A stretch of 64,000 bases of DNA from Opitutales bacterium (lineage in GTDB: Bacteria; Verrucomicrobiota; Verrucomicrobiia; Opitutales; JAVBMG01): the NCBI GenBank assembly GCA_031552815.1, contig JAVBMG010000008.1, positions 54,666 through 118,665 of the forward strand, in the 5' to 3' direction. Below the pieces are notes generated by a model, which had not been told where the DNA came from, did not search any database, and saw nothing but the letters and a program-made list of their open reading frames with translations. Position 1 is the stretch's first letter. Each line of letters starts with the position of its first letter. Below are positions 100-61,247 of this stretch, one piece after another. Position numbers and translations under genes: made by a program.

Positions 100-1152
100 T
101 TATGAAATCCGTTTGTCTGACAGCAGTTTTTTCAGCCAGCGGCGGTGTGGCCCGGAAAGGGTAATCGCATCCAGTTCACTGAGAGGAACCCATTCGCAGT
201 CCGGCGGGGAAAATCCGTTCTCGGGAACCTTGCCCGAGTAAATCCGTTCAAGAATCTGTTGGTAGGAGATTGCGCGTTTGCCTGTCATGAGCAGCGATTT
301 ATGATCGGGTGTCTTTGACGAGATGCTTTCGTGACGGGGAAACTCATACATGCCTTGCAGGCGTTTTCCTGCTTGGGGAACTTTATGCAGAAGCAGCTTG
401 TTGTCGCGGATGCAGAACAACCGGCTTATCTCGATTTTTTCACTCCGTTTCTCGGCAAAGCGGGGAAGGGTTTCTTCCAGACCGAGTTTAGCCGCCTCGC
501 ACATGGCCCATACCGGACAGATTGTGCAGAGGGGGGCGTGGCGGTAGCATACGGTTGCACCCAGTTCCATGAGCGCCTGGTTATGATTTCCCGGATCTTC
601 CTTGTTCAGCAGTTTTTCGGCGATCGGAGTAAAGACCTTAAGTGCGTGCCCGTTATCGCGGAAAAGCGTTTTATTTGCGGTTATGCGGGAAAGTACCCGG
701 ATGACATTACCGTCAACAACGGGGACGGGGTAATTATAGGTGATGCTGGTAATAGCGGCTGCCGTGTAGGGTCCGATTCCCTTGAAGAGCTCCCAGGCAT
801 CCGGCGTTTTCGGTATCTTGTGACGGTCGGTGAGATGTTTGGCCAGTGAGTGCAGGTTTCTGGCGCGTTGGTAGTAACCCAGCCCTTCCCAGTATTTCAG
901 GACGGTAGCTTCGTCGGCATCAGCGAGCTTTTTCCAGTTGGGGAAACGCCGCATCCAACGCTCAAAGTACGGCAGCATCGTCTTTACCTGCGTTTGCTGC
1001 AGCATGAATTCCGAAATAACCGTTTTGTAAAGGGACGGTTTTGTACGCCATGGCAATGGTCGTTTTGCGTCGTGGTACCAGGCCAGCAAAACTTTCTGGA
1101 AGGAATTCGGAGAATCTGAAACGTCCATCCGAGAAAGATGCAAGGACTGCAT
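100..1152 (-). CDS. mutY: A/G-specific adenine DNA glycosylase MutY
   Basis: 350-aa ORF with an HhH-GPD core (EFMLQQTQV, GLGYYQRARNLH). It has the 4Fe-4S loop C-x6-C-x2-C-x5-C (CYRHAPLCTICPVWAMC) and a C-terminal extension of MutY length. Confidence 0.9.
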   Translation of the reverse strand: MQSLHLSRMDVSDSPNSFQKVLLAWYHDAKRPLPWRTKPSLYKTVISEFMLQQTQVKTMLPYFERWMRRFPNWKKLADADEATVLKYWEGLGYYQRARNLHSLAKHLTDRHKIPKTPDAWELFKGIGPYTAAAITSITYNYPVPVVDGNVIRVLSRITANKTLFRDNGHALKVFTPIAEKLLNKEDPGNHNQALMELGATVCYRHAPLCTICPVWAMCEAAKLGLEETLPRFAEKRSEKIEISRLFCIRDNKLLLHKVPQAGKRLQGMYEFPRHESISSKTPDHKSLLMTGKRAISYQQILERIYSGKVPENGFSPPDCEWVPLSELDAITLSGPHRRWLKKLLSDKRIS

Positions 1153-1238
1153 TCGTTTGTCAAAGGCGGAAACAGTTTCTGTATAGAGAAAGAAATCTTG
1201 ATCCGGCTATCGATATTCTATGTTGTTTTGAAGAATAT

Positions 1239-1946
1239 ATGGATTTTGTCCCGAAGTATTTTCCTGAATTCTCAGAAAAGCAGATGAAGCAATTGGATCA
1301 GTTGCTTGCCTGTGTGCGTGAATGGAATGGGAAGATAAACCTGATTTCACGGAAAGACACGGAACATATTGAGGAACACCATATTCTTCATTCGCTCGGA
1401 ATTGTGAAAGCGGTGAAATTCCCTGCCGGATCGCGTGTGATGGATGTCGGTACGGGAGGCGGTTTTCCCGGATTAGTACTGGCCATTGTTTATCCCGATT
1501 GCCAGTTTACGCTGGTGGATTCCATCGGGAAAAAGATCATGGCGGTAAAGGACATGGCGCAGCAGATCGGATTGAAGCATGTTACCGCCAGGCAATGCCG
1601 TGCCGAGGAGGTAAACGGCAGCTTTGATTTTATTACCGGGCGGGCTGTCACCCGTTTGCCTGAATTTATCGGATGGGTACGCAGGAAAATATCGCCTGGA
1701 ACAAAGGAAGGCATATCCCGCGGGATTGTTTATCTGAAGGGGCCGAACGATATCCGGAAAGAATTGGAGGCCATGCAGGTGAAGCCTGTGTCCTGCCACA
1801 TCCTCAGCGAATTCTTTGATGAACCGTTTTTTGCCGAGAAAGCCGTTGTTCACCTGGCAAGCGATACATTGCCGAAAGAACAGGCACTTCAACGGATTGC
1901 CGAGATGATGAAGAAGGAAGATGAGGCAAGGCAGGCAGGAGAATAA
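1239..1946 (+). CDS. rsmG: 16S rRNA (guanine527-N7)-methyltransferase RsmG/GidB
   Basis: SAM-binding motif VMDVGTGGGFPGLVLAI and the WNGKINLIS / HILHSL motifs typical of GidB. I chose the ATG at 1239; the ORF track starts at 1041, which would overlap the mutY 5' end. Confidence 0.85.
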   Translation: MDFVPKYFPEFSEKQMKQLDQLLACVREWNGKINLISRKDTEHIEEHHILHSLGIVKAVKFPAGSRVMDVGTGGGFPGLVLAIVYPDCQFTLVDSIGKKIMAVKDMAQQIGLKHVTARQCRAEEVNGSFDFITGRAVTRLPEFIGWVRRKISPGTKEGISRGIVYLKGPNDIRKELEAMQVKPVSCHILSEFFDEPFFAEKAVVHLASDTLPKEQALQRIAEMMKKEDEARQAGE

Positions 1947-2009
1947 CCAGCCCGGGTCGCAGTCAGTTTCCGAATAATTGTGTGTATTTTGCCATTCTGT
2001 TCATCCAGA

Positions 2010-3068
2010 ATGTTTTCCATGTCATTCCAAGCTACCGCCATAAAAAAAAGCTTTGATAAGCAGCCTGTACTGAATGCCGTAACGATTTCCGTCGAACGCG
2101 GGGAAATACTCGGATTACTCGGCAAATGTGCTTCGGGAAAAAGCACATTGTGCAGAATTATCGCCGGAGAGATTTTTCTGGACAGCGGGACATTGCGCCT
2201 TGACGGAAAATCATTGGCGAACAGGAAAGAAATCGCTTATGTGCCGCAGTGCATATCGGATAGTGAGGAAACATCCGTATGGAAAAAACTGGGTCTTTCC
2301 GGGAAAAAAGAAGTTACGGACCTTTCGTTGACCCCTGCGGTTATTGCCCTTTTGCATGCATTTCGGCTGAATCCCGAACAGGTTCAGGATTCGGATTCGC
2401 TTTCTGAGAGCCAGAAACAACTGTTCGTGATCGCGCGCGCATTGGCAGCAAAACCCCGGTTACTTATCTTTGATGATGCGCTTTCCGGTTTGGATAACAG
2501 TTCCAAGATACTTGTGTTCGGAGCCTGTTACCGTTACGTGAAAGAAGACGGCGGCAGCATGCTGGTAGCGGCAAACCATCCGGCGGATGTATTGCCGTTT
2601 TCCGACCGGGTTGCCTTGTTGCATGGCGGTAGCATTATCCAGGAGGGAACGCCGTTTGAATGCTACCGCCGTCCTCATTCTCCTGCGGCAGCAGGCATTA
2701 TCAGCGAGATTGATTTTATCCGGGGAAAGCTGATTGATGTCGGGGCGGGTGAGGCCTTCGTGGAAACAGCGATAGGCAAGCTCTCCGGTGCGTTGGCAAA
2801 TCCGGAAAAAGAAATGACCGTGGGTTGTGATGTTACCGTGGGCATCCGCATCGAATCGTGGAACAGGAGCGATATGGCGCCGGAGGAAAACTGTTTTCGC
2901 GCAACGGTCGTGATGAGCGCATTTTTCGGGGATTATGCGGATTGCCTGCTCCTGTTTGAGAACGGACAACGCTTGAATGCGCGGTTTAAAAATCCGCGGA
3001 TGTTTGATTTATCCGAGGGAACAAGCTTTGATGTCTGGTTGGACCCTGACGATGTGCTGATCTTCTGA
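2010..3068 (+). CDS. ABC-type ATPase with C-terminal TOBE-like domain (degenerate motifs, orphan)
   Basis: Walker A GKCASGKST, signature-like LSESQKQ, Walker B LLIFDD followed by ALSGLD, and H-loop ANHP. The C-terminal ~120 aa resembles the PotA/CysA regulatory domain. No permease gene is adjacent. Start is ATG 2010 or GTG 1980. Confidence 0.75.
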   Translation: MFSMSFQATAIKKSFDKQPVLNAVTISVERGEILGLLGKCASGKSTLCRIIAGEIFLDSGTLRLDGKSLANRKEIAYVPQCISDSEETSVWKKLGLSGKKEVTDLSLTPAVIALLHAFRLNPEQVQDSDSLSESQKQLFVIARALAAKPRLLIFDDALSGLDNSSKILVFGACYRYVKEDGGSMLVAANHPADVLPFSDRVALLHGGSIIQEGTPFECYRRPHSPAAAGIISEIDFIRGKLIDVGAGEAFVETAIGKLSGALANPEKEMTVGCDVTVGIRIESWNRSDMAPEENCFRATVVMSAFFGDYADCLLLFENGQRLNARFKNPRMFDLSEGTSFDVWLDPDDVLIF

Positions 3069-4682: not shown

Positions 4683-7415
4683 ATGAAAACCATTTCTGTC
4701 AGCAAAGGGCGAAAAATACATATGCGTGCTTCACGCATGGTTTATCGCCATTTTTCTATTATTGGCGGCGCTACGCTTATGTTTGCGTCTGTTATGAATG
4801 CCCAACAATTGTCCATAACGAGCGGAACCGGTAATCTGTATTCGGGTGGCAGCTACAGTACAACCACCGGAGGCATAGATCAATCAGCTATTTATGTCAT
4901 TGGATCCGGAACCCAGGCGGAAGTCTATAACTTTTCAGCACAGGCAACCGGTAATGCTGCAAGCGGGATCTATGTTGGTTCGGGTGCAACCTTGTTATTG
5001 AATTGGAACCATGCCGGTACAGGTACGATTTATGGGGCAGGTGGAGGGAGTACTGCCGGATTACGTGTCGATGGCGGAACCGTTCAGGGTAAACAACTGA
5101 CCATAAACTATTCCGACCTGGAAACCTTTGGTGTTTACGCCACATCAGGTGGGTTGGTGGATCTGCAGGACAGTACGATCAGCAATATGGGTTCGGGAGC
5201 GTATGCGTTGTTTGCTTCAGGAAGCGGGAGCAGGATTACAGGTAATAATCTGTCCATATCCGTGAGCGGGTCAGATACAGGGATCTGGGGCGCGTCTGTT
5301 AATAATGGCGGAATCGTATCGTTGACCGGAGGCTCCATTACCGCAACCAATTCGAACAGGGCGGTTAACGTGGATGGAACCGGTTCATTGTTTGAAGCCA
5401 TCAACCTGCAGATTACCTCAACGAATTTCGGGATCATCAGTACGAATAACGGTAGCGTCTCCTTATCCGGTGGGTTTATTAATACAACGAATAACACGAC
5501 ATTGCGAGCCAGCGGCGGCAGCGTGATTACAGCAAACAGCGTGAATGTCAGCAGTGCCGGTTCTTATGGTTTGGGCGCGACGCTTCTGGCGGGAGAAGCA
5601 ACAGCAGGTACGGTTAATTTCAACGGCGGATCGGTTACATCCCTGATATACGGGGCGAATGCCAGTGCGGGCGGTACTATCCGCATTAATGTTGACTCCA
5701 GTAATGCTCCGCTTGCCTCATCGACATTACTCAAGACAACGGGCAATACGGGCTATGGTCTTTATGCCACAGGGTCCGGATCGAATATTACGGCGGCGAA
5801 TCTCACCGTTAATACCGCAGGGACAAGAGCCTACGGGATTCATTCCATCGCGGGCGGGAAAGTGACGGTAAGCAATAGTGCCATTACTACAGGAAGTTCT
5901 TCCAATGCTTCTGAGGGAACCGAAGGCAGCGGATTGCACATGGATGGCGCTTCCAGTGATATTGCCACCAACGGCGGGGTGTCCATTACGACTTACGGTG
6001 CCGATGCTCACGGTATCCGCGTGAGTAACGGGAAGGTAAAAACCTATGACGGTTCGGCGGGTAATGTATTCCCCGGCATAACCGTTTACGGAAACGGGGC
6101 TGCGGTCATCAATGCAAGCGCTTCCGGCAGTCAGCTCACTTTAAAAAACTACAATCTCAGCACGGCAATGACCGCAGGCGCGGGGACGTGGGGCGCCAAG
6201 GCAGAGAATGGCGGCACGATTACCTTTGATCAGAATGCGTCCAGCGGAGCGACAGCCCTGTGGGCAAGCGCAGGCGGTATCATTACATTTAATGCCAATG
6301 CTGCCGCCAATGGCTCGCGCGTAGTCATTGATACAGGCAGCCAGCTTGATCTCAGCAATACCGGTTCGGGATTAACCATCGGTTCGCTGGAAGGAGGCGG
6401 TAACGTTGCACTTGGTGCGCGGGACTTGACAGTCGGCGGTAGCGTGACGGCTGCGGATAGCGCGAGTACGACTTATAGCGGAAGCATTGGCGGTACAGGC
6501 AATTTTGTTAAGCAGGGCACGGGTACGCTGACTTTGGGCGGGGCGAACGCCTATACCGGAAATACGGTGCTGAACGGCGGTAGCATCAAGGGCGGCGCTG
6601 CCAATGTGATTGCCGCAAGTTCCGCCTTGGTCGTCAGTGCCAACACGACTTTTGATACGGGCAACTTTGTCCAGACGGTTCGCAACCTGCAAGGCGCCGG
6701 ACATGTGATCGCAGGGAACAGCGTTACCATGAACAGTACCGCAGATAGCACCTTCAGCGGTGATGTTTCGGGGACAGGGGGTTTTGTGAAAACCGGATCG
6801 GGCACATTCACGTTAACGGGAACATCGAATGCGTATGCCGGTTCGGCGTCCGTGAATCAGGGAAGTGTTATCGTTGACGGACAATGGGGCAATGCAGGAT
6901 CAGCGTTGGCTGTGAATACCGGAGCGCTTCTTGCGGGAAACGGTATTATTGGCGGGAATGTTACCGTTTCCAATAATGCGACTTTGGCGCCGGGCCGTTA
7001 CGGGAGTGCTTCAAGTCCGGCAATGCTTACGATAGGCGGTGTGTTAACGCTGAACGGCGGTTCAGTCTTTGACTGGCAGACCGGGGATCTTGTGAAAGCC
7101 GCTACGCTGAGTCTGACCGGGGGCAGTCCGATTCTGGTGAATCTTGACGGCTGGTCCGGCGGTACCGTGGTGCTTGCCGAGTTTGATAATCTTCTGGGAT
7201 TTGACTGGGAAACGGACGATGCCAATGACTGGTTTGCTTTAAATATTGCTAACAACCCTGACTACGCAAATTACAACGGTTTGTTTGAAATACGCGACGG
7301 CTTTAGCTTGGTGTATACGGATGTTATACCCGAACCATCCGCCTATGGTTTCTTCAGTCTTATGGCGGCCTTGTTGGGAGCTGCGGTAAGGAGACGCCGG
7401 CGCGTCGTTTCCTGA
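4683..7415 (+). CDS. large secreted beta-helical protein with autotransporter-associated beta-strand repeats and a PEP-CTERM anchor
   Basis: Signal peptide (IIGGATLMFASVMNAQQ). Repeats of the type GTGTLTLGGANAYTGNTVLNGG, GSGTFTLTGTSNAYAGSASVNQG and G/S/T/N-rich beta-strand periodicity. C-terminus VIPEPSAYGFFSLMAALLGAAVRRRRR is PEP + TM + basic tail. Confidence 0.8.
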   Translation: MKTISVSKGRKIHMRASRMVYRHFSIIGGATLMFASVMNAQQLSITSGTGNLYSGGSYSTTTGGIDQSAIYVIGSGTQAEVYNFSAQATGNAASGIYVGSGATLLLNWNHAGTGTIYGAGGGSTAGLRVDGGTVQGKQLTINYSDLETFGVYATSGGLVDLQDSTISNMGSGAYALFASGSGSRITGNNLSISVSGSDTGIWGASVNNGGIVSLTGGSITATNSNRAVNVDGTGSLFEAINLQITSTNFGIISTNNGSVSLSGGFINTTNNTTLRASGGSVITANSVNVSSAGSYGLGATLLAGEATAGTVNFNGGSVTSLIYGANASAGGTIRINVDSSNAPLASSTLLKTTGNTGYGLYATGSGSNITAANLTVNTAGTRAYGIHSIAGGKVTVSNSAITTGSSSNASEGTEGSGLHMDGASSDIATNGGVSITTYGADAHGIRVSNGKVKTYDGSAGNVFPGITVYGNGAAVINASASGSQLTLKNYNLSTAMTAGAGTWGAKAENGGTITFDQNASSGATALWASAGGIITFNANAAANGSRVVIDTGSQLDLSNTGSGLTIGSLEGGGNVALGARDLTVGGSVTAADSASTTYSGSIGGTGNFVKQGTGTLTLGGANAYTGNTVLNGGSIKGGAANVIAASSALVVSANTTFDTGNFVQTVRNLQGAGHVIAGNSVTMNSTADSTFSGDVSGTGGFVKTGSGTFTLTGTSNAYAGSASVNQGSVIVDGQWGNAGSALAVNTGALLAGNGIIGGNVTVSNNATLAPGRYGSASSPAMLTIGGVLTLNGGSVFDWQTGDLVKAATLSLTGGSPILVNLDGWSGGTVVLAEFDNLLGFDWETDDANDWFALNIANNPDYANYNGLFEIRDGFSLVYTDVIPEPSAYGFFSLMAALLGAAVRRRRRVVS

Positions 7416-7421: not shown

Positions 7422-8738
7422 CTATTCGGTTCCCAGATTGCTGTGGATAGCGGTATTGTTTGCTTCGTTCTCGATGCGAACTTTCCCTTTGACGGTGTTT
7501 TCACTGACAATCGCGCGTTGGACATCCTTGCCGATGCTGACCTGCGGACTGTCTGCCATGAAGTCACAACCGCGGATAACGATGCTACCGTCATGAACCT
7601 GTATTGCTTTTCGTCCTTCACGGTTTTTGTCCCATTGCACAAAAATACAATCGGAAAAACCGATGGTTCCTTTCCCGCTGATCTTTGCAATCTGGTTGCA
7701 CGGACCCCAGAAAGCGCTGTTCATGAAACGCACATTGCCCTGATTTGCCGCTGTCACTTCGACCATCGTGGGATCATCTCCGTCCAGAGCGACAAATTCT
7801 CCGTTGGTGATCAATATGCCGTACGGCGCGCTTTGTTCCACCTTAATTGCAGTATGGCAGGCATCAGCGCCGATACCAAGGAAGTTACCGTTGCAGGAAC
7901 CCGTTGCGCCGGAACTTGCTCCGAATTTGTACCCGACATTATAGCCGAAGCAGAATGTATTGATGACATAGTGCCAGTCCGTCCGTTCGAAAATAAAGGC
8001 TTCGCCGTTTTGCCTCTGCCAGTTGTAGAGCGCCGGTTTCATGCTCCACCATGGATTCCAATGCACATTTTCAATGCGGCCGATGTCATAAATGCCGTCA
8101 ACAAAGATACCGCGCCTTAACGGTTGTCCGCTGATGTTACGGATCAAGGCGCGCTCATTCTGCGACGCATCGATGGCATTGTAAGGATTGAGCATCTCAA
8201 CATCGAGCAAGGCAGGGTTTTTGCCGCGCATGGCAATGCCCCAGGGATAGGCATCGGGGATTTTTTCCGGATCCTGCAAGGGCCAGTACATGACAACGCC
8301 GCGCAACGTACTGTTTGTGTTTAAGGTGATGGCCGGCGATGCTTTTTCGTTTCCCTTGTTTCCGGTAATCAATAATGTCGTACCGTCATCGCCCGGCTTG
8401 GGCAGTCCTGGGTTGCGGATGCCGTTGTGCGAAGGGACGGATTCAAAGCTCCCCTTCAATGTTACCGCCTGCGGAACATTCAGGGAATCGGCGATGAGAT
8501 AAGTGCCGTTAGGAATGTAAACCGTTCCGCCCCGTTTACCGAAGGAATCCAGCGCCTTCTGGAAAGCGGCGGTAGCATCGGTTTTTCCGTCAGCCTTGGC
8601 TCCGAAATCAAGTACGGACACCCTATCGACCGATTCGGGATGCGGTTTAATATCCACATCTTTGGCATTCGGAAGAACTTGCTGGGCATTCAAACAATTG
8701 ACTCCAAACACAAGCAAAAGCAGAAAAATTCTTTTCAT
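7422..8738 (-). CDS. secreted right-handed beta-helix glycoside hydrolase (pectate-lyase-superfamily, Pectate_lyase_3-like N-terminus)
   Basis: Signal peptide MKRIFLLLLVFGVNCLNAQ. The motif VLDFGAKADGKTDATAAFQKAL...GGTVYIPNGTYLI is characteristic of the GH55/GH28-like beta-helix family. Substrate cannot be inferred. Confidence 0.65.
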   Translation of the reverse strand: MKRIFLLLLVFGVNCLNAQQVLPNAKDVDIKPHPESVDRVSVLDFGAKADGKTDATAAFQKALDSFGKRGGTVYIPNGTYLIADSLNVPQAVTLKGSFESVPSHNGIRNPGLPKPGDDGTTLLITGNKGNEKASPAITLNTNSTLRGVVMYWPLQDPEKIPDAYPWGIAMRGKNPALLDVEMLNPYNAIDASQNERALIRNISGQPLRRGIFVDGIYDIGRIENVHWNPWWSMKPALYNWQRQNGEAFIFERTDWHYVINTFCFGYNVGYKFGASSGATGSCNGNFLGIGADACHTAIKVEQSAPYGILITNGEFVALDGDDPTMVEVTAANQGNVRFMNSAFWGPCNQIAKISGKGTIGFSDCIFVQWDKNREGRKAIQVHDGSIVIRGCDFMADSPQVSIGKDVQRAIVSENTVKGKVRIENEANNTAIHSNLGTE

Positions 8739-20912: not shown

Positions 20913-20925
20913 ACGGTAGCATGGA

Positions 20926-51647: not shown

Positions 51648-52688
51648 ATGCGCATGTATTATCCCTATGTTCGATTGCTTTCGAATCGTAAAATGCTGAG
51701 CATCATAAACAAATATGTACAGTGGTCATGGGCGGAAGCGCTGAGAGGCGCTCTCTGCATGTTACCGTCCATCGTTCTTTGCTTGCTTGGTAAACCGGTT
51801 TACGGTTTGGAAATCGGTATTTGCAGTATTCCGTTGGCCATGGTCGGCATACAACCGGAGCGTCAAGACAGGCTTCGCTTGCTGTTTGCAGTAGTCATGC
51901 TTTCCATTGTGTTCGGACTTGGAGTTGTCCTTCCCGGTGTTTGGTGGATGGATATGATTTCCGTATTCCTGGTCGTTTATGCGACGGTTCCCTTGGCTGT
52001 TTTTACGCGGATTGGCCTGCTTGCTTATCTGATTCTCTTACCCTCGTTTGTTGTGGCTGTCAGCAATCATTCATCAGCGGATAGCGGCTTGCCCATTTCC
52101 TTGCTTTTATTTTCGAGCGGTGTGTGGATTGTCATCGTGAATTATCTCTTTCCAGAAAAAAAAGAGAAAAAACGGAAGAAGGCTTCTCCCCGTGTTCCTG
52201 AGATTCCCAAGATTCATAGATTGGGTCTTCTATTTGCCTGTGCCATTGTGGGAACCATGTATATCGGTTATTATCTTGAAATCAAGGATCCTGCCTGGGC
52301 GGCGATTGCTGCGACGCTGATTATCCGTCCGCATGATGAAATGCTTAAGTTCCGGGGGATTGTTCGTGTCATGGCTACGACCGGCGGTATCTTATTGGCT
52401 TTTTCCATGATGCCGTCCGCTGAAAATAATTGTGTGTTGGGTATTTATCTGTTCGGCATAGCGGTTATCATTATTGCGATGCGCAAAATTCAATGGTACT
52501 TGTTTCCGGCAGGTATGGCATTGCTTCTGGTTTTACTCTATAATAAGCAGGAGCCGAGTGATTTTATCACCGTGTTGAATTTCGGTCTGATCAGGAATAC
52601 GATTGGTTCCATGGTTGCACTTTATTTTGGCTTGTGTATTCCGTGGATGATTGGCCGCGTATTAGCTGAATTTCGCAAAAATAACTAG
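51648..52688 (+). CDS. polytopic integral membrane protein (FUSC/ArAE-like, tentative)
   Basis: About 9-10 hydrophobic helices and a central basic loop KKEKKRKK. No catalytic motif. The family call rests on topology only. Confidence 0.45.
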   Translation: MRMYYPYVRLLSNRKMLSIINKYVQWSWAEALRGALCMLPSIVLCLLGKPVYGLEIGICSIPLAMVGIQPERQDRLRLLFAVVMLSIVFGLGVVLPGVWWMDMISVFLVVYATVPLAVFTRIGLLAYLILLPSFVVAVSNHSSADSGLPISLLLFSSGVWIVIVNYLFPEKKEKKRKKASPRVPEIPKIHRLGLLFACAIVGTMYIGYYLEIKDPAWAAIAATLIIRPHDEMLKFRGIVRVMATTGGILLAFSMMPSAENNCVLGIYLFGIAVIIIAMRKIQWYLFPAGMALLLVLLYNKQEPSDFITVLNFGLIRNTIGSMVALYFGLCIPWMIGRVLAEFRKNN

Positions 52689-52703
52689 TATTACTGGAAG
52701 TTC

Positions 52704-52731
52704 GGAAAATATATTTTCCCCCTATTTTTTT
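52704..52731 (+). terminator. AT-rich palindrome plus T-run after the membrane-protein gene
   Basis: GGAAAATATATTTTCC (a perfect 16-bp palindrome) followed by CCCTATTTTTTT. The stem is weak and AU-rich. Confidence 0.4.
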
Positions 52732-52979
52732 GCACTGTACGCATAAACCAGTCCGTTATCTCTTCAGTGAGTATCTATAAGTATCACCCATCTTTCGCAC
52801 TTTCGTAAAGTATATAATATAAGTACTGTTGTTGCTGAAATGTATCTTCGTTATTCTTCAGATAAACATTCTTTGCGAAAAACAAGATAAAAAAAATTTG
52901 ACAAAAGGAGGATATACTGCTTTTTATTTAGCCCATGATTAATAATGACTCATCGAAAGAGGCTGTCAAATTGATGTTG

Positions 52980-53015
52980 CCCTCGTTCAAGGATGAACGG
53001 GGATGTTTGTTTTTG
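52980..53015 (+). promoter_or_regulatory. hairpin plus U-tract inside the 493-bp leader upstream of pilT (possible attenuator or sRNA 3' end)
   Basis: CCC(T)CGTTCA-AGGA-TGAACGGGG followed by ATGTTTGTTTTTG. Confidence 0.35.
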
Positions 53016-53181
53016 AAGGGAAATAAATCCATTGGGTTTGTTTACATTGGGGGCGTTCAGTTCGCTTCTTTCTGATTTTTGTTCGTTATTAATTAACGTT
53101 TTATCTGAATTGCTTTAACTAAAGACTGATCTGTTTTATATTATTTGGTTAAATTAAACATATCTTGTTTGTTAGTTTATT

Positions 53182-54240
53182 ATGAATACGAAGGAACTTA
53201 TTAATATAGGATTACAAAAAGATGCATCGGACGTTCACCTTTGTGAAGGTGATCCTTTGGTTCTTCGTGTTGACGGTGTGGTTAGCAAATTTCCCGAATA
53301 TCCGGTAACAAAAGAAAATTTGGATGAGGTCGTAGATAGCTGGATTACCGTGGCGCAGCGAAAAGGCTTTGTTGAATCGATGCATGCGGTTGACTTTGCG
53401 ACCAATATTGACGGGCAGGATATGCGCTGTCATATGTTCCTTTCAGGCGGAAAGCGTTGTATCGCCATCCGTTTCATGCGGGCAAAGATTCCGACCATGG
53501 ATGACCTCATGTTGCCCAAGGCGTTTCAGCAAATTATTAAGGATGGCCGTCCGACCGGATTAATTCTGGTCACCGGTTATACCGGCTCCGGTAAATCCAC
53601 GACACTCGCAGCCTCCTTGAACTGGTTAAACCAGAACGAGCCCTTGAATATTGTTACTTTGGAACACCCGATCGAATACCGTTACAAGCAGGAGAAAAGT
53701 ATTATCCGCCAGAGAGAAGTAGGCCGGGATGTTCATGACTTTAACGCGGGAATGGTAGATGCCATGCGTGAAGACCCTGATGTGATTCTGATCGGTGAGT
53801 TGCGTGATGCCGAAACCGTGAAAGCAGCGGTGTCTGCCGCGGAAACAGGACACTTGGTGTTTGGAACATTGCACACGCGTACGGCAGCATCAACTATTAG
53901 TCGTATTTTTGACGTGGTTCCTGCCGATGAACGTGACCAAATTCGCACCATGGTGGCTTCATCTTTGCTGGCGGTTATCGGTCAGCGACTGGTTCCGAAA
54001 ATCAGTGGCGGCCGTGTGGCTGTTTTTGAATTGATGGTAAACTGCCCGGCTGTGGCTGGGGCAATCCGTGAAAACCGCCCCGGACAGCTTGCGAATGAAA
54101 TCGCGGTAAAAAAAGAGCTGGGAATGATTGACTTTGATACTTGTTTATTAAACTACGTCCGGGATAAGGTAATCACACCTGAGGACGCCATAGCCACTTC
54201 TGACCGTCCTGATGAGCTGAAAAAACGCTTGGGCCGATAA
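53182..54240 (+). CDS. pilT: PilT/PilU-family type IV pilus retraction ATPase
   Basis: 352 aa. Walker A GYTGSGKST, Asp-box/Walker B DPDVILIGELRD, His-box GHLVFGTLHT and a C-terminal AIRENRPGQL (AIRNLIRE-like) motif. Confidence 0.88.
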   Translation: MNTKELINIGLQKDASDVHLCEGDPLVLRVDGVVSKFPEYPVTKENLDEVVDSWITVAQRKGFVESMHAVDFATNIDGQDMRCHMFLSGGKRCIAIRFMRAKIPTMDDLMLPKAFQQIIKDGRPTGLILVTGYTGSGKSTTLAASLNWLNQNEPLNIVTLEHPIEYRYKQEKSIIRQREVGRDVHDFNAGMVDAMREDPDVILIGELRDAETVKAAVSAAETGHLVFGTLHTRTAASTISRIFDVVPADERDQIRTMVASSLLAVIGQRLVPKISGGRVAVFELMVNCPAVAGAIRENRPGQLANEIAVKKELGMIDFDTCLLNYVRDKVITPEDAIATSDRPDELKKRLGR

Positions 54241-54253
54241 TCTATAAGCACTA

Positions 54254-56194
54254 ATGAAACAAACACTAAACAGTCTTGCCAAAGCCGGTTTGAAAAAGGG
54301 AACCTTCGGGATATCTCTTCTGATGCTTGCCATGCCGCTTGCGCTGGAAGCGCAGTTCGTGATTGCCATTGACGGAGCAGTGAACAATGCGGCGCAAAAT
54401 GCAAATGCTGAAGCTTCGGAAAAGGATATGCAAGTACAGCAGGCTCCGCAAAATCCAAAAAGTCCTTTGGACAAGATGATTCCTTATTTCAGCCAGGACG
54501 ACCAACCGATTCCCCGCGTAATGCAGGCGCTTGGCCGTTCAAACGGTATCAGTATCATTTGTGATCCGAATATTGACGGAAAAGTCTATGTGGAATTTTA
54601 TAACATCAGCCTGCGCGGTGCCTTGGATGCGATTTGCGATCCTTACGGTTTTTATTGGGAACTGGAACCGAATGGCTGGGTATCTATTCGCAGGACAAAG
54701 ACCATTATTTATCATGTGGAATATCCGCGTCTGGAACGTACGGGAACCGCCACCTCGGAAATCAACCTTGGAAACGTAGGCTATAGTAATAATAATAATA
54801 ATATGAACGGAGGAAGTTCCGGTGGCTCTTCGCGCGGCAGTGGCAGTGGTGGTGGCGGAAGCGGAAATAATGAAGAAGATGAAGATAAAGCCAGTGTCAA
54901 GGTTGAGCAGAAGAATGATGATCCTTTCTGGACAAAGCTGGAAACAGAATTGAAGAGTGTACTTATTGATGATAAGACAGAAAAAATCACATTTAATCGT
55001 TTTTCGGGAACCGTTCAAGTGACTGCCGGGCGCAAAACACACCAATATGTAACGGATTATCTTGGATCCATCAACATGCGGATCGGGATGCAGGTAGAAA
55101 TTGTGGCCAAGATTGTCGAGGTGCAATTGGATGACCAGCACAAACTGGGTATTGACTGGCGCCAGGCAGCAACGAGTATCGGCGGTAAAAATGGATTGCA
55201 GATCGGTCAGCCGGAACTGTCACCTTCTACGGGGGAAATCATGGGTGACGTGATCGGAAACACAAATATAATGAAATTCGGTAGTTTTGAATTTTCTCCG
55301 GATACCTTTTCCGGAACCATCGGTCTCGGTGACATCAGCGCAATGATTTACGCATTGTCGCAACAAGGAACCGTGAATACGATTTCATCACCGCGGATTG
55401 TAACGACCAATAACCAAACAGCGTATATCAAGGATACGAACGATAAGCCCTTCTTCCAGTTGCAGCAGTCTGCCGAATATCGTAATTATGATAATAACAA
55501 CGGAACCGATTCTACCTACCGTAGTTATCAGATTAATACCATTTCCATCGGTACTATCATGGCGGTAACGCCGCAGGTGGCGAATAACGGGGATATCACT
55601 TTGGATGTCATGCCGGCATTAACCCGTTTGAAAGATACCGCGACTTCGCCGGACAAATTGTCAAATGCTCCCGACCTTCAGGTTAAGCAGGCATCGACGA
55701 TTGTTCGTTTGCGTAGCGGGGAAACAGCCGTTATCGGCGGTTTGATTACGGATGCGGAAGGCGTGATGACACGCGGCGTTCCTTTCCTCGAAGACATTCC
55801 CTTTATCGGTAAATACCTGTTTCAGTCGGAAGCCACCTATCATACGAAAAGTGAATTGGTCATTTTCTTGACGCCGCGTATTATTAAACCGGGATCCTTG
55901 ATTGATATTGATGAGGAGACCAAGCGGAATGCGGTGAGAAATCATACCGTAACCCCGGTCAAGGCTCCGTCGATGCCGACAGGCATTTCTGATATTCGTG
56001 GTGCGAATGGTGAATATCATGACGGTTATCGTTACGATGGCAATGTTTACAATCAGGTCAGTTCCGACGGTAGCAACTATAACCAGGGAAACTACCGCGG
56101 ATCAAATACGGATGAGATCACGGACGAAGGCTTGGGGGGAGATGATCCGAGGCGAACCAAGCTCAAACCGGTCGAAAATGTAAGTTTATTTTAA
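54254..56194 (+). CDS. secretin (PilQ/MshL/GspD family outer-membrane channel)
   Basis: Signal peptide. The C-terminal secretin domain carries SSPRIVTTNNQTAYI and VPFLEDIPFIGKYLF...SELVIFLTPRII. There is an internal N/G/S-rich low-complexity linker. Confidence 0.85.
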   Translation: MKQTLNSLAKAGLKKGTFGISLLMLAMPLALEAQFVIAIDGAVNNAAQNANAEASEKDMQVQQAPQNPKSPLDKMIPYFSQDDQPIPRVMQALGRSNGISIICDPNIDGKVYVEFYNISLRGALDAICDPYGFYWELEPNGWVSIRRTKTIIYHVEYPRLERTGTATSEINLGNVGYSNNNNNMNGGSSGGSSRGSGSGGGGSGNNEEDEDKASVKVEQKNDDPFWTKLETELKSVLIDDKTEKITFNRFSGTVQVTAGRKTHQYVTDYLGSINMRIGMQVEIVAKIVEVQLDDQHKLGIDWRQAATSIGGKNGLQIGQPELSPSTGEIMGDVIGNTNIMKFGSFEFSPDTFSGTIGLGDISAMIYALSQQGTVNTISSPRIVTTNNQTAYIKDTNDKPFFQLQQSAEYRNYDNNNGTDSTYRSYQINTISIGTIMAVTPQVANNGDITLDVMPALTRLKDTATSPDKLSNAPDLQVKQASTIVRLRSGETAVIGGLITDAEGVMTRGVPFLEDIPFIGKYLFQSEATYHTKSELVIFLTPRIIKPGSLIDIDEETKRNAVRNHTVTPVKAPSMPTGISDIRGANGEYHDGYRYDGNVYNQVSSDGSNYNQGNYRGSNTDEITDEGLGGDDPRRTKLKPVENVSLF

Positions 56195-56228
56195 AGCAGA
56201 ACAGAACAAAAGCACTACTAACACTTCT

Positions 56229-57998
56229 ATGAACACACGCTCAACTAACACAACAAATACGTCGTCCCATGTAAATGGGAACGGTGCTGTTGTGCCGTTA
56301 TCGGACGGGGAGCAGGTGCAGGAGCCTAAGGTTATCCGTTTTGAACCGGATTTTCTCTGGATGCCGCAGGTTTTGGTTCAGCAAGGAGTCGGCGCAAGCA
56401 GTATCAAGCTGGCTACGGATTATTATAATCAGCAGGGCCGTCGGATGAGTTATGGGGCTGTTCTGATTGAGTTGGGATTGATGACTCCGCCTTCCGTAGC
56501 CAAGATGATTGCCGATTATTACGGATTTGAAACGATTTCTTTGGGTGGTTTGCGGGTGACTCCTGAGGTGGCAAAACTCTTGCCCGCAAACATTTCACGC
56601 CGCCGCAAGGTGATCCCGATTCAGCGCGAAGGGCAAACGTTGACGGTGGCAGTTGCCGATCCGTCCGAACCGGGGTTTGGTGAAGTGCCACAGTTATTGG
56701 GTCGTGTCGGCATGCGGAATATTATTTTCAAGATTGCCTTGGAAGCGGAAGTGATCGGGAAACTGGAAGAAGTGTGGGCGCCGAAAATTGACGTTACCGA
56801 TCCGGCTCGATTCTTTGACTTGCTCGTTAATGAGGCAGTGATGATGGGGGTTTCCGATATTCACGTGGTACCGGAAGAAACACATATGCAGATCAAGTTC
56901 CGTCTGGACGGATTTATTCATCCCTATCGGGTGATTGATGGTTCCAACAAGGAAGCCATTAATGCGCGCTTCAAGATGAAAGGCGGCTTGGATATTGCTG
57001 TTAAAAACGTACCGCAGGACGGACGTGCCAAACTAGTGTTGAACGGAAAAAAGGTAAATCTGCGTTTCTCTTCTTTGCCGACGCTTTATGGAGAGAGCTT
57101 GGTCATGCGTATTCTTGACCAGTCCAAGGGCATTGTTCCGTTGGAAAAGCTTGGTATGCTGGATGATACCAAGGCCACGATTTTAAAAGCCGCCAATGCT
57201 GCTTACGGGTTTACCTATTTTGTAGGTCCTACCGGTTCCGGTAAAACAACGTCGCTGTATTCCATTATTAATACCTTGGATGTCAGTAATTACACGATGA
57301 TGACCTTGGAGGATCCGGTGGAATATGAATTCCGTAATATTCGCCAGACGGAAATTACCGATAATCTGACCTTTGCTTCCGGATTGCGTTCGTTGTTGCG
57401 TCAGGATCCCGATTATATTCTGGTCGGTGAAACGCGTGACAAGGAAACCGCGGAGTTGTCCATGCGCGCTGCCTTGACAGGCCATACCGGGTTTTCGACC
57501 TTGCACGCCAATACAGCCTTGGGTGGAATCGCCAGATTGATTGATATCGGGGTGGATCCCAGCATCATCATCAGCGCGGTGAATATCTTCGTATCGCAGC
57601 GTCTGGTGCGCCGTCTTTGTACCTGTAAGGAGCCGCATCCGCATGCGCAGGCAGTGGCGGATCACTACAGTATCCAGTTAAAACCGGGGCAAATGCTGTA
57701 TCGTCCGAAGCCGGGAGGTTGTGGACTATGCAACGGAACAGGATACAAAGGACGCGTCGGATTGTACGAATGCCGTCCGGTTGAGCCTTTTGCCGATATT
57801 ATTGTCAAGTCAGGCAAAGATGCCTTGCGCGATTGCGAGGCGGAAGCAAGAAGACTTTATGCAATGGAAATGGAAAAAGAAGGAAGTTCCATTTTCAGAA
57901 CCATGCGCCGTGAAGGTTTTATCAAGGCTGCCATGGGGCTTACTTCCATCGAGGAAGTGGTTGCACAAACAGAACCCGAAGCCGGGTTCGGTTCCTAA
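56229..57998 (+). CDS. PilB/GspE/MshE-family assembly ATPase
   Basis: T2SSE N-terminal domain, Walker A GPTGSGKTT, Asp-box LRQDPDYILVGETRD, His-box GHTGFSTLHAN, and a tetracysteine CTC...CGLCNGTGYKGRVGLYE. Confidence 0.9.
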   Translation: MNTRSTNTTNTSSHVNGNGAVVPLSDGEQVQEPKVIRFEPDFLWMPQVLVQQGVGASSIKLATDYYNQQGRRMSYGAVLIELGLMTPPSVAKMIADYYGFETISLGGLRVTPEVAKLLPANISRRRKVIPIQREGQTLTVAVADPSEPGFGEVPQLLGRVGMRNIIFKIALEAEVIGKLEEVWAPKIDVTDPARFFDLLVNEAVMMGVSDIHVVPEETHMQIKFRLDGFIHPYRVIDGSNKEAINARFKMKGGLDIAVKNVPQDGRAKLVLNGKKVNLRFSSLPTLYGESLVMRILDQSKGIVPLEKLGMLDDTKATILKAANAAYGFTYFVGPTGSGKTTSLYSIINTLDVSNYTMMTLEDPVEYEFRNIRQTEITDNLTFASGLRSLLRQDPDYILVGETRDKETAELSMRAALTGHTGFSTLHANTALGGIARLIDIGVDPSIIISAVNIFVSQRLVRRLCTCKEPHPHAQAVADHYSIQLKPGQMLYRPKPGGCGLCNGTGYKGRVGLYECRPVEPFADIIVKSGKDALRDCEAEARRLYAMEMEKEGSSIFRTMRREGFIKAAMGLTSIEEVVAQTEPEAGFGS

Positions 57999-58029
57999 AA
58001 ACAAAATAATAAACTAAGATATAAATCAT

Positions 58030-58782
58030 ATGAAAAACACAATGAAAAGTAAGAAGGGTTTTACCCTTATTGAAATGTTGGGCGTTCTCGCCATTATCGC
58101 GATCCTCGTTAGTATCGTCGCTGTTGGCGTATTGAAGGCTATCAACCGTTCACGTATCGTTTCCACGGTCGCTAACTTCAAAACCTACGAAACAGCCATG
58201 TTGGCATTCGTAACTCTGCCGGAAACTTTGGGATTTCTCCCGATCACTGAAGGCGCAAGTAACTACACTACATCTGTTCCAACGATAGGCGGAACGCCAG
58301 GAGCAAATGCAACTGACCCAGATTTGTATACACTTGGTCAAGTATTCTTGGGCGCAGGAGTTCTTGAGCGCATGCCAACTTTCCGCGTAGGTCGTGAATT
58401 GCCTTTTGCTTCCGGTTCTGATGTTCAGGCAGTGTGGAGTCAATCAGACGTTGCATGGTTGGATACACCAGTGGCTAATGCAAAGTTCACAACACAAAAG
58501 AAAGCTCGCTGTGAGGCTGTTGTAGCTACCGCAACGATTGGTCTTGGTACGAATTTTGCTCTTGGCGGTGGCGGTACAGCATCTGTACCTGTAGGTGCAA
58601 CGATCGCTTATGTAGTTGTTCCGCAGGTATCTTCAGCAGACGCTGTTGAATTGTCCAAGGAAGTAAATGGTTCGTTGAACAAGGCGACATTGACTAACGT
58701 AAAGCAAGACGACGGTCGTTTGACATTTGCAGTAGCAAGTGGCGGAATGACTGATGTTTATTACTATATCGGTAATATGTAA
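58030..58782 (+). CDS. type IV pilin / pseudopilin with a prepilin-type N-terminal cleavage-methylation signal (250 aa)
   Basis: Leader MKNTMKSKKG followed by FTLIEMLGVLAIIAILVSIV (Gly-1, Phe+1, Glu+5). The C-terminal globular part has a single Cys. Confidence 0.85.
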   Translation: MKNTMKSKKGFTLIEMLGVLAIIAILVSIVAVGVLKAINRSRIVSTVANFKTYETAMLAFVTLPETLGFLPITEGASNYTTSVPTIGGTPGANATDPDLYTLGQVFLGAGVLERMPTFRVGRELPFASGSDVQAVWSQSDVAWLDTPVANAKFTTQKKARCEAVVATATIGLGTNFALGGGGTASVPVGATIAYVVVPQVSSADAVELSKEVNGSLNKATLTNVKQDDGRLTFAVASGGMTDVYYYIGNM

Positions 58783-58825
58783 TATGTGATGCGTTGAATT
58801 CGTAAGAGAAAACGATCAATTAACT

Positions 58826-58859
58826 ATGATAGGATAAGCAGTTTTGCTTATCCTATCAT
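58826..58859 (+). terminator. strong hairpin immediately downstream of the pilin gene
   Basis: A perfect 15-bp stem ATGATAGGATAAGCA-GTTT-TGCTTATCCTATCAT, 44 nt after the pilin stop. No long U-tract, so partial termination or a stabiliser role is plausible. Confidence 0.65.
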
Positions 58860-58875
58860 TCAATTAAGGTAGATA

Positions 58876-60180
58876 ATGAAACATGCGGTAATCATTTGGG
58901 AAAAAACAGTCTATTTCCGGACAAAGGATGGATGGCAGAAGAATGCCATAGGAAAAACGGAAAATGCTGTAAATGTCCTTGCTGATAATTTCAAGAAGGG
59001 ATCAAAGTTTTGTATTGCTTACGATCCGTATATTCTCAGTACGGAAGTGGTTGATTGTCCCAAAGGTCCCCGCACAGTCATGCGCGAATCGTTCCTTGAA
59101 ACGCATGATATGATTTCAAATGAGGAAACAGCGTGGGGTTACCAACCGCAATGGTCCAGCGGAGGAGGTGGTTTTTCCACATATTTGTCTTATGAAACCA
59201 ATCCCTCTTTGCTTCCGATGATGCAAAAAGCGGAAGAAGAAAAGGTGAAAATAAGCAGTGTTTATCCATTAGCGACTCTCGTTTCCCAAACTATAGGTGC
59301 CCCGGGAAAGACTTCTGTCTTTCTGATGATTGATAGCGAAATAAAACAGGCCTATATGGCTATTTCCTCGTTCACAGGAATGCGTGCCATACGCAAGATT
59401 TTCAATTCGGAGGATCGTCCGGTAGACCTGTGGGCGGAAATACAGCTTTTCTTGGCAGAATATGGAGTGGCTTTCGATTTTGTCGGACACTCAAAACCCC
59501 AGATTAAAATATTTCAGGCGTCGAATACGGACGTGAAGACAGAATGTCCCTTCTGGTCCGAAATGAATAATGCCTGCTCGGTTGATATACAAGCGTTTGA
59601 CGCACTCGAAAAACTACTTTTTGCGGTTCCGTCTCGTCATATAGGATCCATGACGGCAGGATTCCCTCAGGTGCTGAATATTGATCCTGTCTTTCAAGGA
59701 TTGGCAGTAGTGACCTTATTGGCATTGGGCTTTGTCGGATGGTTGTATTGGAGTGAACAGCAAGAGTTTCTGGAACAGCAACAGGAAATTACCAACCAGA
59801 AAAATGCTCAAGCAATAGTCAAAAATCAATTATTGAAAAATAAAAAGGAAATTGAATCCTTAAAGGTTTTGTTTTCGGAAGATAATCTTTTGGCCAGCAA
59901 GGAGAAAATCCGCTTTATTCAAGGCTTCTCCGAAGGACTACCCTTGGACTACACCGTAACTAATCTGCGTATTTTCCAGGATAATGCTTTTCAGATGGAT
60001 GGTATTTTATGGAATTTGAATGCAAAAACAACCAAGGAAAACGTTGCGAATCCGATCATTATGGCTTTGGAGCGCAGTGTGAAAGGTGTTCTTGTGGACA
60101 GTAAGAAAACACAGTTTAAAGGTCAGGAGCGGGGAGAACTGACTATTGAAGGTTCTATTCCTAAACAATTTGTGAAATAA
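58876..60180 (+). CDS. bitopic pilus/secretion assembly protein, GspL-like or PilM-PilN-fusion-like (topology-based)
   Basis: 434 aa: ~270-aa cytoplasmic domain, one TM (GLAVVTLLALGFVGWLYW), a coiled coil (QQEFLEQQQEITNQKNAQ) and a ~120-aa C-terminal domain. Position is directly after the pilin gene. No sequence motif was recognised. Confidence 0.45.
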   Translation: MKHAVIIWEKTVYFRTKDGWQKNAIGKTENAVNVLADNFKKGSKFCIAYDPYILSTEVVDCPKGPRTVMRESFLETHDMISNEETAWGYQPQWSSGGGGFSTYLSYETNPSLLPMMQKAEEEKVKISSVYPLATLVSQTIGAPGKTSVFLMIDSEIKQAYMAISSFTGMRAIRKIFNSEDRPVDLWAEIQLFLAEYGVAFDFVGHSKPQIKIFQASNTDVKTECPFWSEMNNACSVDIQAFDALEKLLFAVPSRHIGSMTAGFPQVLNIDPVFQGLAVVTLLALGFVGWLYWSEQQEFLEQQQEITNQKNAQAIVKNQLLKNKKEIESLKVLFSEDNLLASKEKIRFIQGFSEGLPLDYTVTNLRIFQDNAFQMDGILWNLNAKTTKENVANPIIMALERSVKGVLVDSKKTQFKGQERGELTIEGSIPKQFVK

Positions 60181-60183
60181 CCC

Positions 60184-60744
60184 ATGAATAATAAGAAAAA
60201 CAAGGTAAAATTGTCTCCGGTATGGATTATCTTTTGGGTATTTTTACTTGGAGGCATTGGTGGCGGACTGTACTATCGTGAGGTTATGACAGAAGAGGCA
60301 CTTATGGCTATTGCCCAATTGGAGAGTGAATTGAGTACAGAAAAAAATGCGGTTTCAGCCTTGCAAAAAGACTTTTCGAATGCGAAAGCGCAGGAAGCGC
60401 GTGATCGTGCCAATAAATTTAAAATGTCGATGTTGAGCAGGGCAGAAGTGAATGCAATCACTTCGAGCTATGCCGAACAATGGAACGTCAATAAAATCCG
60501 CGAGGATGACAATGACGAGTATATTCTGAGCCGTTATCAGTTAATGCGCGGTTCCAGCGGGGTTGCGGACTGGGAGATGATTTACAATACGATTTTGGAC
60601 TTGGACAAGCGAAGCGGCTTTGTCCTGGATACCTTGGATATAAGCACTGCAGGTGACAACCGCCAGAGGATGTTTTCCCGGGTGAGTATTGCTTTGCAGA
60701 TTTACATCAAGAAACCCGGTGATGAGGGGTTGTCGAAGAAATAA
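60184..60744 (+). CDS. bitopic protein with PilO/GspM-like topology
   Basis: 186 aa: short N-terminus, TM (VWIIFWVFLLGGIGGGLYY), a coiled coil and a ~100-aa C-terminal domain. It starts 4 nt after the upstream stop. Confidence 0.4.
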   Translation: MNNKKNKVKLSPVWIIFWVFLLGGIGGGLYYREVMTEEALMAIAQLESELSTEKNAVSALQKDFSNAKAQEARDRANKFKMSMLSRAEVNAITSSYAEQWNVNKIREDDNDEYILSRYQLMRGSSGVADWEMIYNTILDLDKRSGFVLDTLDISTAGDNRQRMFSRVSIALQIYIKKPGDEGLSKK

Positions 60745-60755
60745 GGAGAAATGAA

Positions 60756-61247
60756 ATGAAGAAAAAAAATCTAGTTTTTGTTTTTTGTTTGCTTGCTGGT
60801 TTTTCGGTGGCATTTGCGCAAAATAGCACTGGTTTCAAACCAAGTACGATTCCTGTTCGGGATGGTGTGGCTGCAACATTTCCGGGAGCGAATCCGGTAG
60901 CATCCGCAAACAATACCGGCAGTTATGCGAGCAGCACTCCTATTGATAAGGATTCGCCGCAGTACGCAGACATGATTTATAAAATGCGCGAATCCGTGCA
61001 ACGTATTGCCTCGGAATACGGTAATCCGGCTTTTGCCCAGGTCTTTACCAACGATAAGGACCGTGCGGAGGAAATCCGCAATAAACTGAAGGTCTTGGAA
61101 TCCCATGAAGCTTTGGCCCAGATCAATGAGGCGCTGAGCAAGCGGGAGAGCGAACTCCGCATGGAAATTGAACGTCTGGAAGCCCGTTTAAATGATCTTA
61201 AATACCGCGTGAACGAAGCACAGAAGCTTCTGGACGGAACCAAATAA
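60756..61247 (+). CDS. secreted coiled-coil protein of unknown function
   Basis: Signal peptide (LVFVFCLLAGFSVAFAQ) and a C-terminal heptad-rich segment. Operonic position in the pilus cluster. Confidence 0.4.
   Translation: MKKKNLVFVFCLLAGFSVAFAQNSTGFKPSTIPVRDGVAATFPGANPVASANNTGSYASSTPIDKDSPQYADMIYKMRESVQRIASEYGNPAFAQVFTNDKDRAEEIRNKLKVLESHEALAQINEALSKRESELRMEIERLEARLNDLKYRVNEAQKLLDGTK

Follow-up and report, generated by a model that had tools for sequence, protein, structure and literature searches.

A hyper-abundant, non-palindromic 9-mer in an Opitutae-like verrucomicrobial genome is a candidate DNA uptake sequence

We analyzed a 64-kb stretch of contig JAVBMG010000008.1 (hereafter the window), in which 49 genes, covering 92% of the sequence, were called and annotated with Pfam and NCBIfam. 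Its housekeeping genes are mutY, a 1901-aa double uvrA, uvrD, tig-clpP-clpX, sufBC and trxB, and its right end holds a type IV pilus-like operon. Scattered over the window is the 9-base word ATGCTACCG (reverse complement CGGTAGCAT), the motif discussed here. The best named homologues of ClpX come from Puniceicoccaceae and Opitutaceae (61-65%), and PilT is closest to that of termite- and cockroach-gut Opitutaceae (Termitidicoccus, TAV5, Ereboglobus; 70-73%). By these homologues, the host, described in a first-pass annotation of this DNA as a PVC-type bacterium, is an Opitutae-like verrucomicrobium.

An exact search found 38 copies of ATGCTACCG in the window, 21 on the + strand and 17 on the - strand, compared with expectations of 0.27 in dinucleotide-preserving shuffles (maximum 2), 0.36 under a Markov model of order 2 and 0.94 under one of order 3. 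In k-mer tables of the window for k = 7-11, the top words are all sub- or superstrings of this one. Its Poisson log-likelihood score is 104; the runner-up 9-mer, found after masking the motif family, scores 14 and was traced to a pair of tandem paralogues. ATGCTACCG is the sole extreme k-mer outlier in the window, and the intervals between its copies do not depart from random spacing (coefficient of variation 1.15, P = 0.10). The first-pass annotation had arrived at the same count and the same split by orientation, with coordinates that were all right except 32146, a typo for 32136; for a one-off variant, AGCTACCG, it gave about 14 copies, where we counted 13 (2 on +, 11 on -). The over-representation is real, and the present analysis both confirms and strengthens it: the motif is about 100 times commoner than chance, in both orientations, in genes as well as in terminator hairpins.

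The databases hold a single close relative, in Logan run SRR26434396, with amino-acid identities of 83% for ClpX, 76% for the M3 oligopeptidase and 80% for PilT. ATGCTACCG is the top 9-mer in this sister lineage too. Its contigs L003, L066 and L070 (30.7 kb, 42-44% GC) carry 15 copies (9 on +, 6 on -), or 0.49 per kb, the same density as in the window. Our sample of the motif-bearing clade thus consists of the 64-kb window and 31 kb of the relative. An assembly artefact was rejected as a source of the motif, because copies sit in frame within conserved genes and the motif recurs in another lineage that was assembled independently.

Imperfect copies are also enriched. Against a Markov-3 simulation, exact matches are 41 times commoner than expected (38 observed, 0.92 expected) and one-mismatch forms 4 times (76 observed, 19 expected), and two-mismatch forms occur at the expected level (197 observed, 202 expected; 1-fold). 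Enrichment graded in this way is also seen in the DNA uptake sequences (DUS) and uptake signal sequences (USS) of other bacteria (Bakkali 2007, PMC1939737). Mismatches are tolerated at motif positions 2, 4 and 6, and positions 3, 5 and 7-9 are nearly invariant. The one-mismatch variants are unevenly distributed between the strands (AAGCTACCG, 1 on + and 10 on -; ATGTTACCG, 10 and 4; ATGATACCG, 1 and 6), and the most frequent of all, ATGTTACCG, is the C-to-T product of the motif. This asymmetry parallels the enrichment of the + strand in G and T (GC skew +0.12, with an excess of T) and so fits a decay of exact copies; it suggests strand-specific mutational decay.

The surroundings of the motif are informative over a short distance only. 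In the window, the base 3' of the core is T in 22 copies, C in 11, G in 5 and A in none, the same numbers as in the first-pass tally. In a flank logo of 53 copies pooled from the window and the relative and examined to ±30, signal was confined to -2 (C-rich, A avoided), -1 (not T), +1 (Y, never A) and +2 (C), with all other positions at background level, giving an extended logo of c-V-ATGCTACCG-Y-c. In a repeat search of the window, none of the families above about 20 nt in length included ATGCTACCG. The earlier view that the motif is not a fragment of a longer repeat is upheld by both results.

Coding sequence holds 32 of the 38 copies (84%), and the other six lie in the 8% of the window that is intergenic; the first-pass annotation likewise had six intergenic copies. 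Genic copies show no preference for the transcribed strand (14 sense, 18 antisense) and use five of the six reading frames, never the one that contains TAG. The favored frames encode small, common residues (x-A-T-x, x-V-A-x and x-G-S-I). It had been claimed that neither sense is favored within genes and that the motif is read in several frames, and both statements describe the data well. A codon-aware null had also been proposed as a check. We ran 500 synonymous-codon shuffles within genes, keeping each protein and each gene's codon usage, and obtained a mean of 8.0 copies and a maximum of 13. Because six of these 8.0 are the immovable intergenic copies, only about 2 coding copies are expected, compared with 32 observed, and the enrichment survives.

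The gene for the M3 oligopeptidase, which carries five copies, shows what the motif does to a protein. Motif-encoded residues agree with those of 116 homologues at a mean of 0.25, and randomly drawn positions at 0.56 (P = 0.0014). Where the family has G-E-P-I (G in 109 of 116 homologues, I in 110 of 116), the copy at 42039 encodes H-A-T-V, and the sister lineage has D-E-P-L. The motif-encoded residues are thus off the family consensus, which argues that the force maintaining the motif acts on DNA and overrides protein conservation.

We compared orthologues in 4.9 kb of aligned coding DNA with 68-71% nucleotide identity. There are six motif sites in the window and four in the relative, and two of the eight orthologous sites are common to both (clpX 32136 and M3 41397); the rest differ by 1-5 substitutions. 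Two of six window sites are therefore kept in the relative, compared with a background of 6% for any 9-mer (P ~0.05). A similar comparison is possible within the window, where, of two tandem paralogues without a Pfam match (15326-16334 and 16666-17672, spaced 1340 apart; 84% nucleotide identity over 300 nt), each carries an exact copy at a place occupied by a near-miss in the other. Each paralogue is followed by a similar hairpin; the one at 16293-16334 lacks the motif, and its counterpart at 17643-17664 has it. Exact copies at different places in the two paralogues are within-genome evidence of turnover by point mutation. Among Opitutae further removed, four loci that together span 81 kb (L067, L068, L069 and Termitidicoccus mucosus L071; 58-63% GC) contained no copy of the motif and no comparable k-mer outlier. 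Taken together, these comparisons indicate that the motif is maintained in a narrow clade while point mutations create and destroy its single sites. GC content is 42-48% in the two motif-bearing lineages, compared with 58-63% in the nearest motif-less relatives, and from these compositions the clade appears to have undergone a large drop in GC.

The genic copies are distributed as follows. Near the left end of the window, one is read in sense in a mutY-like gene (100-1152; motif at 542-550, -), and an ABC ATPase gene (1980-3068) contains an exact inverted pair, with its left arm at 2627-2635 (-) and its right arm at 2660-2668 (+). There is one copy in a PATR/PEP-CTERM protein gene (6578-6586, -) and two in a pectate-lyase-like gene (7422-8753), antisense at 7582-7590 (+) and sense at 8570-8578 (-). 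The double UvrA gene (9314-15019, - strand) has four, at 9613-9621 (+, antisense) and at 10243-10251, 11332-11340 and 14469-14477 (all +). Its 1901-aa product consists of two tandem UvrA units and matches UvrA equivalog models twice over, with a partial match to NF001885 (long UvrA, 1809 positions). The gene at 15326-16255 carries a copy at 16212-16220 (-), where its tandem paralogue reads CGGTgGCAT (17552). The polyprenyl synthetase gene is hit in both senses (18679-18687, +, sense; 19303-19311, -, antisense), a TPR protein gene once (20275-20283, +) and the trigger factor gene twice (29316-29324 and 29446-29454, both -). The copy in clpX (32136-32144, -) is the one kept at the orthologous site in the sister lineage (L003 11185).

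In the right half of the window, an M48-like peptidase gene (33949-36060) has copies at 34422-34430 (+) and 34962-34970 (-). The five in the M3 gene differ in their fate in the relative. The copy at 40590-40598 (+) encodes NATV in place of the family's consensus, E-A-T-E, and has no counterpart there; those at 40708-40716 (-, YGSI) and 41087-41095 (+, MLP) are represented by 7/9 matches; that at 41397-41405 (+) is kept (L066 1315); and the fifth, at 42039-42047 (+), encodes the HATV described above. Further copies lie in an M28 peptidase gene (43864-43872, +), an alpha-galactosidase gene (47179-47187, +; 48103-48111, -) and a dsbD-like gene (50063-50071 and 50735-50743, both -), and the part of a GH43 gene that codes for the signal peptide contains an exact inverted pair at 48451-48483 (48451-48459, -; 48475-48483, +). 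The 13-kb pilus operon region has a single copy, at 60895-60903 (-), in an open reading frame (ORF) at 60756-61247.

Structure prediction places most of the intergenic copies in putative terminator hairpins, several of them as inverted pairs. Between convergent genes at 22817-22859 is a predicted bidirectional terminator (A6-GACGGTAGCc...ATGCTACCGTC-T6), in which a degenerate arm, CGGTAGCcT (22825-22833), faces an exact copy (22843-22851), with A- and T-runs on either side; RNAfold gives -33.8 kcal/mol for a 99-nt segment. A terminator-like site at 49449-49489 (+), also between convergent genes, has the form ACGGTgGCATG...CATGCTACCGT plus a T-run, with degenerate CGGTgGCAT at 49451-49459 and an exact copy at 49469-49477, and is the top site of its 20-kb segment. 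The intergenic inverted pair at 45499-45553 similarly combines CGGTAGCAa (45499-45507) with an exact copy (45545-45553). The copy at 17648-17656 (+) takes up loop and stem of the hairpin at 17643-17664, which has a T-run and is terminator-like on the - strand, and the copy at 25433-25441 (+), upstream of uvrD, lies within a hairpin (25431-25453) followed by a T-run. The sixth, at 20914-20922 (-), is immediately 3' of the stop codon of the gene at 19533-20912. We used only individual top hairpin sites, because a generic terminator scan was barely above shuffled background overall. In the relative, a motif copy and a degenerate partner form a predicted bidirectional terminator of textbook form (L066 226-270). 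Inverted pairs in terminators had been reported in the first-pass annotation, and the pairs are indeed present, but they consist of an exact and a degenerate copy; the exact-exact pairs, 2627/2660 in the ABC ATPase gene and 48451/48475 in the GH43 signal peptide, are both coding.

A search of genome contigs with the trigger-factor protein gave one irrelevant Oscillospiraceae locus. A scan of metagenome contigs with ACGGTAGCATN{4,30}ATGCTACCGT, a pattern too strict to catch the clade, gave 62 loci, nearly all chance hairpins or an unrelated palindromic repeat of the TACGGTA type. In the metagenome contig L025 (Ga0302117_10065827), two arrays of 60-bp tandem repeats (420-770 and 1440-1678) have two CGGTAGCA(T) copies in each unit, with 22 exact 9-mers in 1.7 kb, and the contig ends in a hairpin, ACGGTAGCATGGAATTTCTATGCTACCGT, close to the window terminator at 22817-22859 including its loop GGAATTTCC. 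Viral contigs scanned with CGGTAGCATN{3,30}ATGCTACCG gave chance matches, one unrelated phage iteron cluster and one possibly clade-related contig. The latter, L095 (IMG/VR, 47% GC), has three motif copies in 9.5 kb (4867 and 5734-5758), including an intergenic inverted pair, and is possibly a phage or prophage with a host in the motif-bearing clade. The iteron cluster (L078 3032-3301, with the same sequence at L096 2374-2643; 38% GC) comprises 11 TGCTACCG iterons in about 270 bp of AT-rich DNA; by its sequence it looks like a replication origin, local and unrelated to a genome-wide scatter.

What maintains the motif? Trivial causes are scarcely credible. Abundant peptides or codon bias are refuted by the codon shuffle (about 2 copies vs. 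32), by the use of five frames and by residues atypical for their families. Fragments of a dispersed mobile repeat of the REP or MITE type would share extended flanks, but the flanks of ATGCTACCG are empty beyond -2..+2 and the motif is absent from every repeat family above about 20 nt, which refutes this origin as well. A Chi-like or KOPS/SRS-like sequence, which RecBCD/AddAB or FtsK would recognize according to the direction of replication, would also be a short, over-represented, non-palindromic word in a strongly GC-skewed chromosome, as the motif is. The GC skew of the window runs from +0.03 to +0.18 and is positive in every 4-kb bin, which places the window on a single replichore; even so, its copies are balanced (21/17), a balance of the two orientations that the first-pass annotation had also noted. 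When the relative's contigs were added and polarized by GC skew, 30 copies fell on the G-rich and 23 on the C-rich strand, a ratio that agrees with 0.5 (P = 0.41) and rejects a Chi-like 0.75 (P = 0.003). The strong co-orientation with replication that defines Chi and KOPS is thus lacking in ATGCTACCG. Known Chi sites are also far less enriched, and the motif is not G-rich. The balanced orientation refutes an architecture word of this type within the sampled region, and we hold it to be very improbable.

Two further explanations share more of the evidence. The motif could be a word like HIP1 of cyanobacteria, selected for an intracellular role that involves no DNA uptake, for example as the binding site of an abundant nucleoid- or chromosome-organizing protein, as a self-marker in defense or repair, or as the site modified by an orphan methyltransferase. 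The extreme frequency of the motif, the evidence that the force acts on DNA and the confinement to one clade fit this explanation equally well, and the pilus operon is not specific to the motif-bearing lineages. The two of six sites kept in the relative also speak for it, and Xu et al. argued for selection on HIP1 from such site conservation (PMC5861425). On the other hand, most orthologous sites are not kept, the spacing of copies is no more regular than random, and ATGCTACCG, which differs from its reverse complement, lacks the palindromic form of HIP1 and of typical orphan-methyltransferase sites. The combination of terminator inverted pairs with a graded mismatch halo is a specific DUS/USS signature, and among the annotated genes of the window there is neither a DNA methyltransferase nor a candidate motif-binding protein. 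We consider a HIP1-like role, the chief competitor of the reading that we favor below, rather unlikely. Alternatively, the motif could be a functionless by-product of a mutation or repair bias, such as very-short-patch-like repair or biased gene conversion, that turns near-motifs into the motif. This would agree with turnover by point mutation, with the enrichment of one-mismatch forms and with the strand asymmetry of the variants, which is in line with the composition bias of the replication strands. However, very-short-patch-type repair of the C in question would remove the commonest variant, ATGTTACCG, rather than enrich it, and the overriding of strongly conserved amino acids implies a strong directional force. 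To our knowledge, no repair bias produces an enrichment of about 100-fold in a non-palindromic word of 9 to 13 nt. A by-product of this kind strikes us as improbable.

On balance, we favor the reading that ATGCTACCG is a DNA-uptake-enhancing sequence that would have evolved independently in a narrow, Opitutae-like clade of Verrucomicrobiota. We put the chances at about even that it is the first DNA uptake sequence outside Proteobacteria, an independently evolved tag for the recognition of self DNA in this clade. By analogy with DUS and USS, we infer uptake bias as the driving force. A DNA receptor at the cell surface, belonging to the competence apparatus or the type IV pilus, would preferentially bind double-stranded DNA that bears the motif, and hence fragments from relatives that carry it would be taken up and recombined more often. 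Molecular drive would then spread copies born by point mutation wherever the genome tolerates them, and some of these may have been co-opted as inverted pairs in terminator stems. At the level of sequence, the motif appears to show all hallmarks of DUS and USS. Those named in the first-pass annotation (over-representation, survival of a codon null, no longer repeat, no skew, several frames and terminator hairpins) each hold under test, and to them we can add the mismatch halo, the sharing of the motif with a sister lineage despite turnover, its absence from distant relatives and the overwriting of conserved residues.

Several observations weigh against an uptake sequence. The share of copies in ORFs is 84%, compared with 65% in Haemophilus influenzae and 35% in Neisseria gonorrhoeae, and the ratio of one-mismatch to exact copies is 2:1, compared with about 0.5:1 in H. 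influenzae. The sample is about 95 kb from only two lineages. The HIP1 word of cyanobacteria demonstrates that a motif can be hyper-abundant without serving as an uptake signal (PMC5861425). The literature that we searched contained no report of natural transformation in Verrucomicrobiota. No gene of the window contains a comEA, comEC, dprA or comF domain. The pilus operon is an ambiguous witness. It encodes, all on the + strand, a PilT/PilU-family ATPase (53182-54240; NCBIfam 367.7 bits, cut-off 319.1), an MshL/PilQ-like secretin (54254-56194) and a PilB/GspE-like ATPase with an MshEN domain (56229-57998), followed by one prepilin (58030-58782) and a T2SSF/PilC-like protein (63473 to the end of the window at 64000). 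The first-pass annotation had pointed to PilT and the secretin as the hardware of DNA uptake. Both are encoded here, but as evidence for uptake they are weak: PilT, secretin, PilB and pilin occur in the same order in T. mucosus, which lacks the motif, so that the operon is compatible with uptake but unspecific. The same synteny implies that it is not a recent acquisition. The operon region (50744-64000) is moreover the part of the window poorest in the motif, with a single copy over 13.3 kb (post hoc P = 0.0016); the PilT-secretin segment of the relative (L070 3407-7230) has no copy.

On any reading, the signal appears to be undescribed. A literature search for the ATGCTACCG string returned primers and similar uses only, and the claim that no uptake signal has been described for PVC bacteria agrees with the literature searched, in which uptake sequences or transformation combined with Verrucomicrobia gave nothing relevant. 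If the motif is an uptake sequence, this would imply that these uncultured PVC bacteria undergo natural transformation and take up specific sequences by means of a receptor with no relation to ComP, a first hint of natural competence in Verrucomicrobiota. The origin of sequence-specific uptake is debated between molecular drive and selection for "safe sex"; if a distant phylum supplied a third case of independent origin, such uptake would prove to be convergent, and the drive model could be tested afresh. The motif would also be a handle for transformation tools in a phylum that is hard to manipulate. Should the uptake reading fail, what is left is a strongly maintained, asymmetric genome-wide signal, so far undescribed, that overrides protein conservation and would need a new explanation.

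How does the motif compare with known systems? The words that impart architecture to chromosomes, such as Chi and KOPS, are likewise short, asymmetric and over-represented, but are co-oriented with replication, which the motif is not. HIP1 (GCGATCGC) resembles it in being 15- to 300-fold over-represented, present in coding and non-coding DNA and lineage-specific, with a function that is unknown or disputed (PMC5861425); HIP1 is, however, palindromic, tied to orphan methyltransferases and reportedly conserved in its sites, whereas the window motif is asymmetric and most of its sites turn over. Uptake-enhancing sequences occur, in the literature searched, only in Neisseriaceae and Pasteurellaceae (bioRxiv 10.1101/2025.10.24.684340; PMC1939737). 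Their hallmarks are more than 1000 copies per genome where fewer than 10 are expected, no orientation bias, about 10% of copies in inverted repeats, association with terminators, avoidance of the stop frame, over-represented mismatched forms, a majority or large minority of copies in ORFs, and evolution by point mutation (PMC1939737; bioRxiv 10.1101/2025.10.24.684340). By eye, ATGCTACCG matches neither GCCGTCTGAA, AAGTGCGGT nor ACAAGCGGT and is no known DUS or USS dialect. The extended consensus ATGCTACCGTC has ATGC and CCGTC in common with the AT-DUS of Neisseria, ATGCCGTCTGAA, and its reverse complement, which in a third of copies is GCGGTAGCAT, contains the GCGGT of the USS core; these shared letters are probably coincidental.

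The DUS of Neisseriaceae (GCCGTCTGAA; AT-DUS, ATGCCGTCTGAA), which is bound by the minor pilin ComP, differs from the window motif in its unrelated sequence, in its phylum and in its share of coding copies (about 35% in N. gonorrhoeae vs. 84%), and uptake is here deduced from sequence; no ComP-type receptor was identified in the 64-kb window. Like the window motif, it is short and non-palindromic, occurs about once per 1-2 kb without orientation bias, both in genes and in intergenic inverted-pair terminators, shows mismatch enrichment, is restricted to its clade and avoids the stop frame. The USS of Pasteurellaceae (AAGTGCGGT / ACAAGCGGT) has another core, and its AT-rich, helically phased flanks were not detected around the window motif, which has about 2 one-mismatch forms for every exact copy rather than about 0.5. 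The likeness nevertheless extends to a 9-nt core with weak flank preferences that lies mostly in ORFs (65% in H. influenzae), and to further traits of the USS (PMC1939737) that are alike here: about 10% of copies in inverted repeats, origin by point mutation, encoded peptides that depart from those of orthologues, and the absence of orientation bias.

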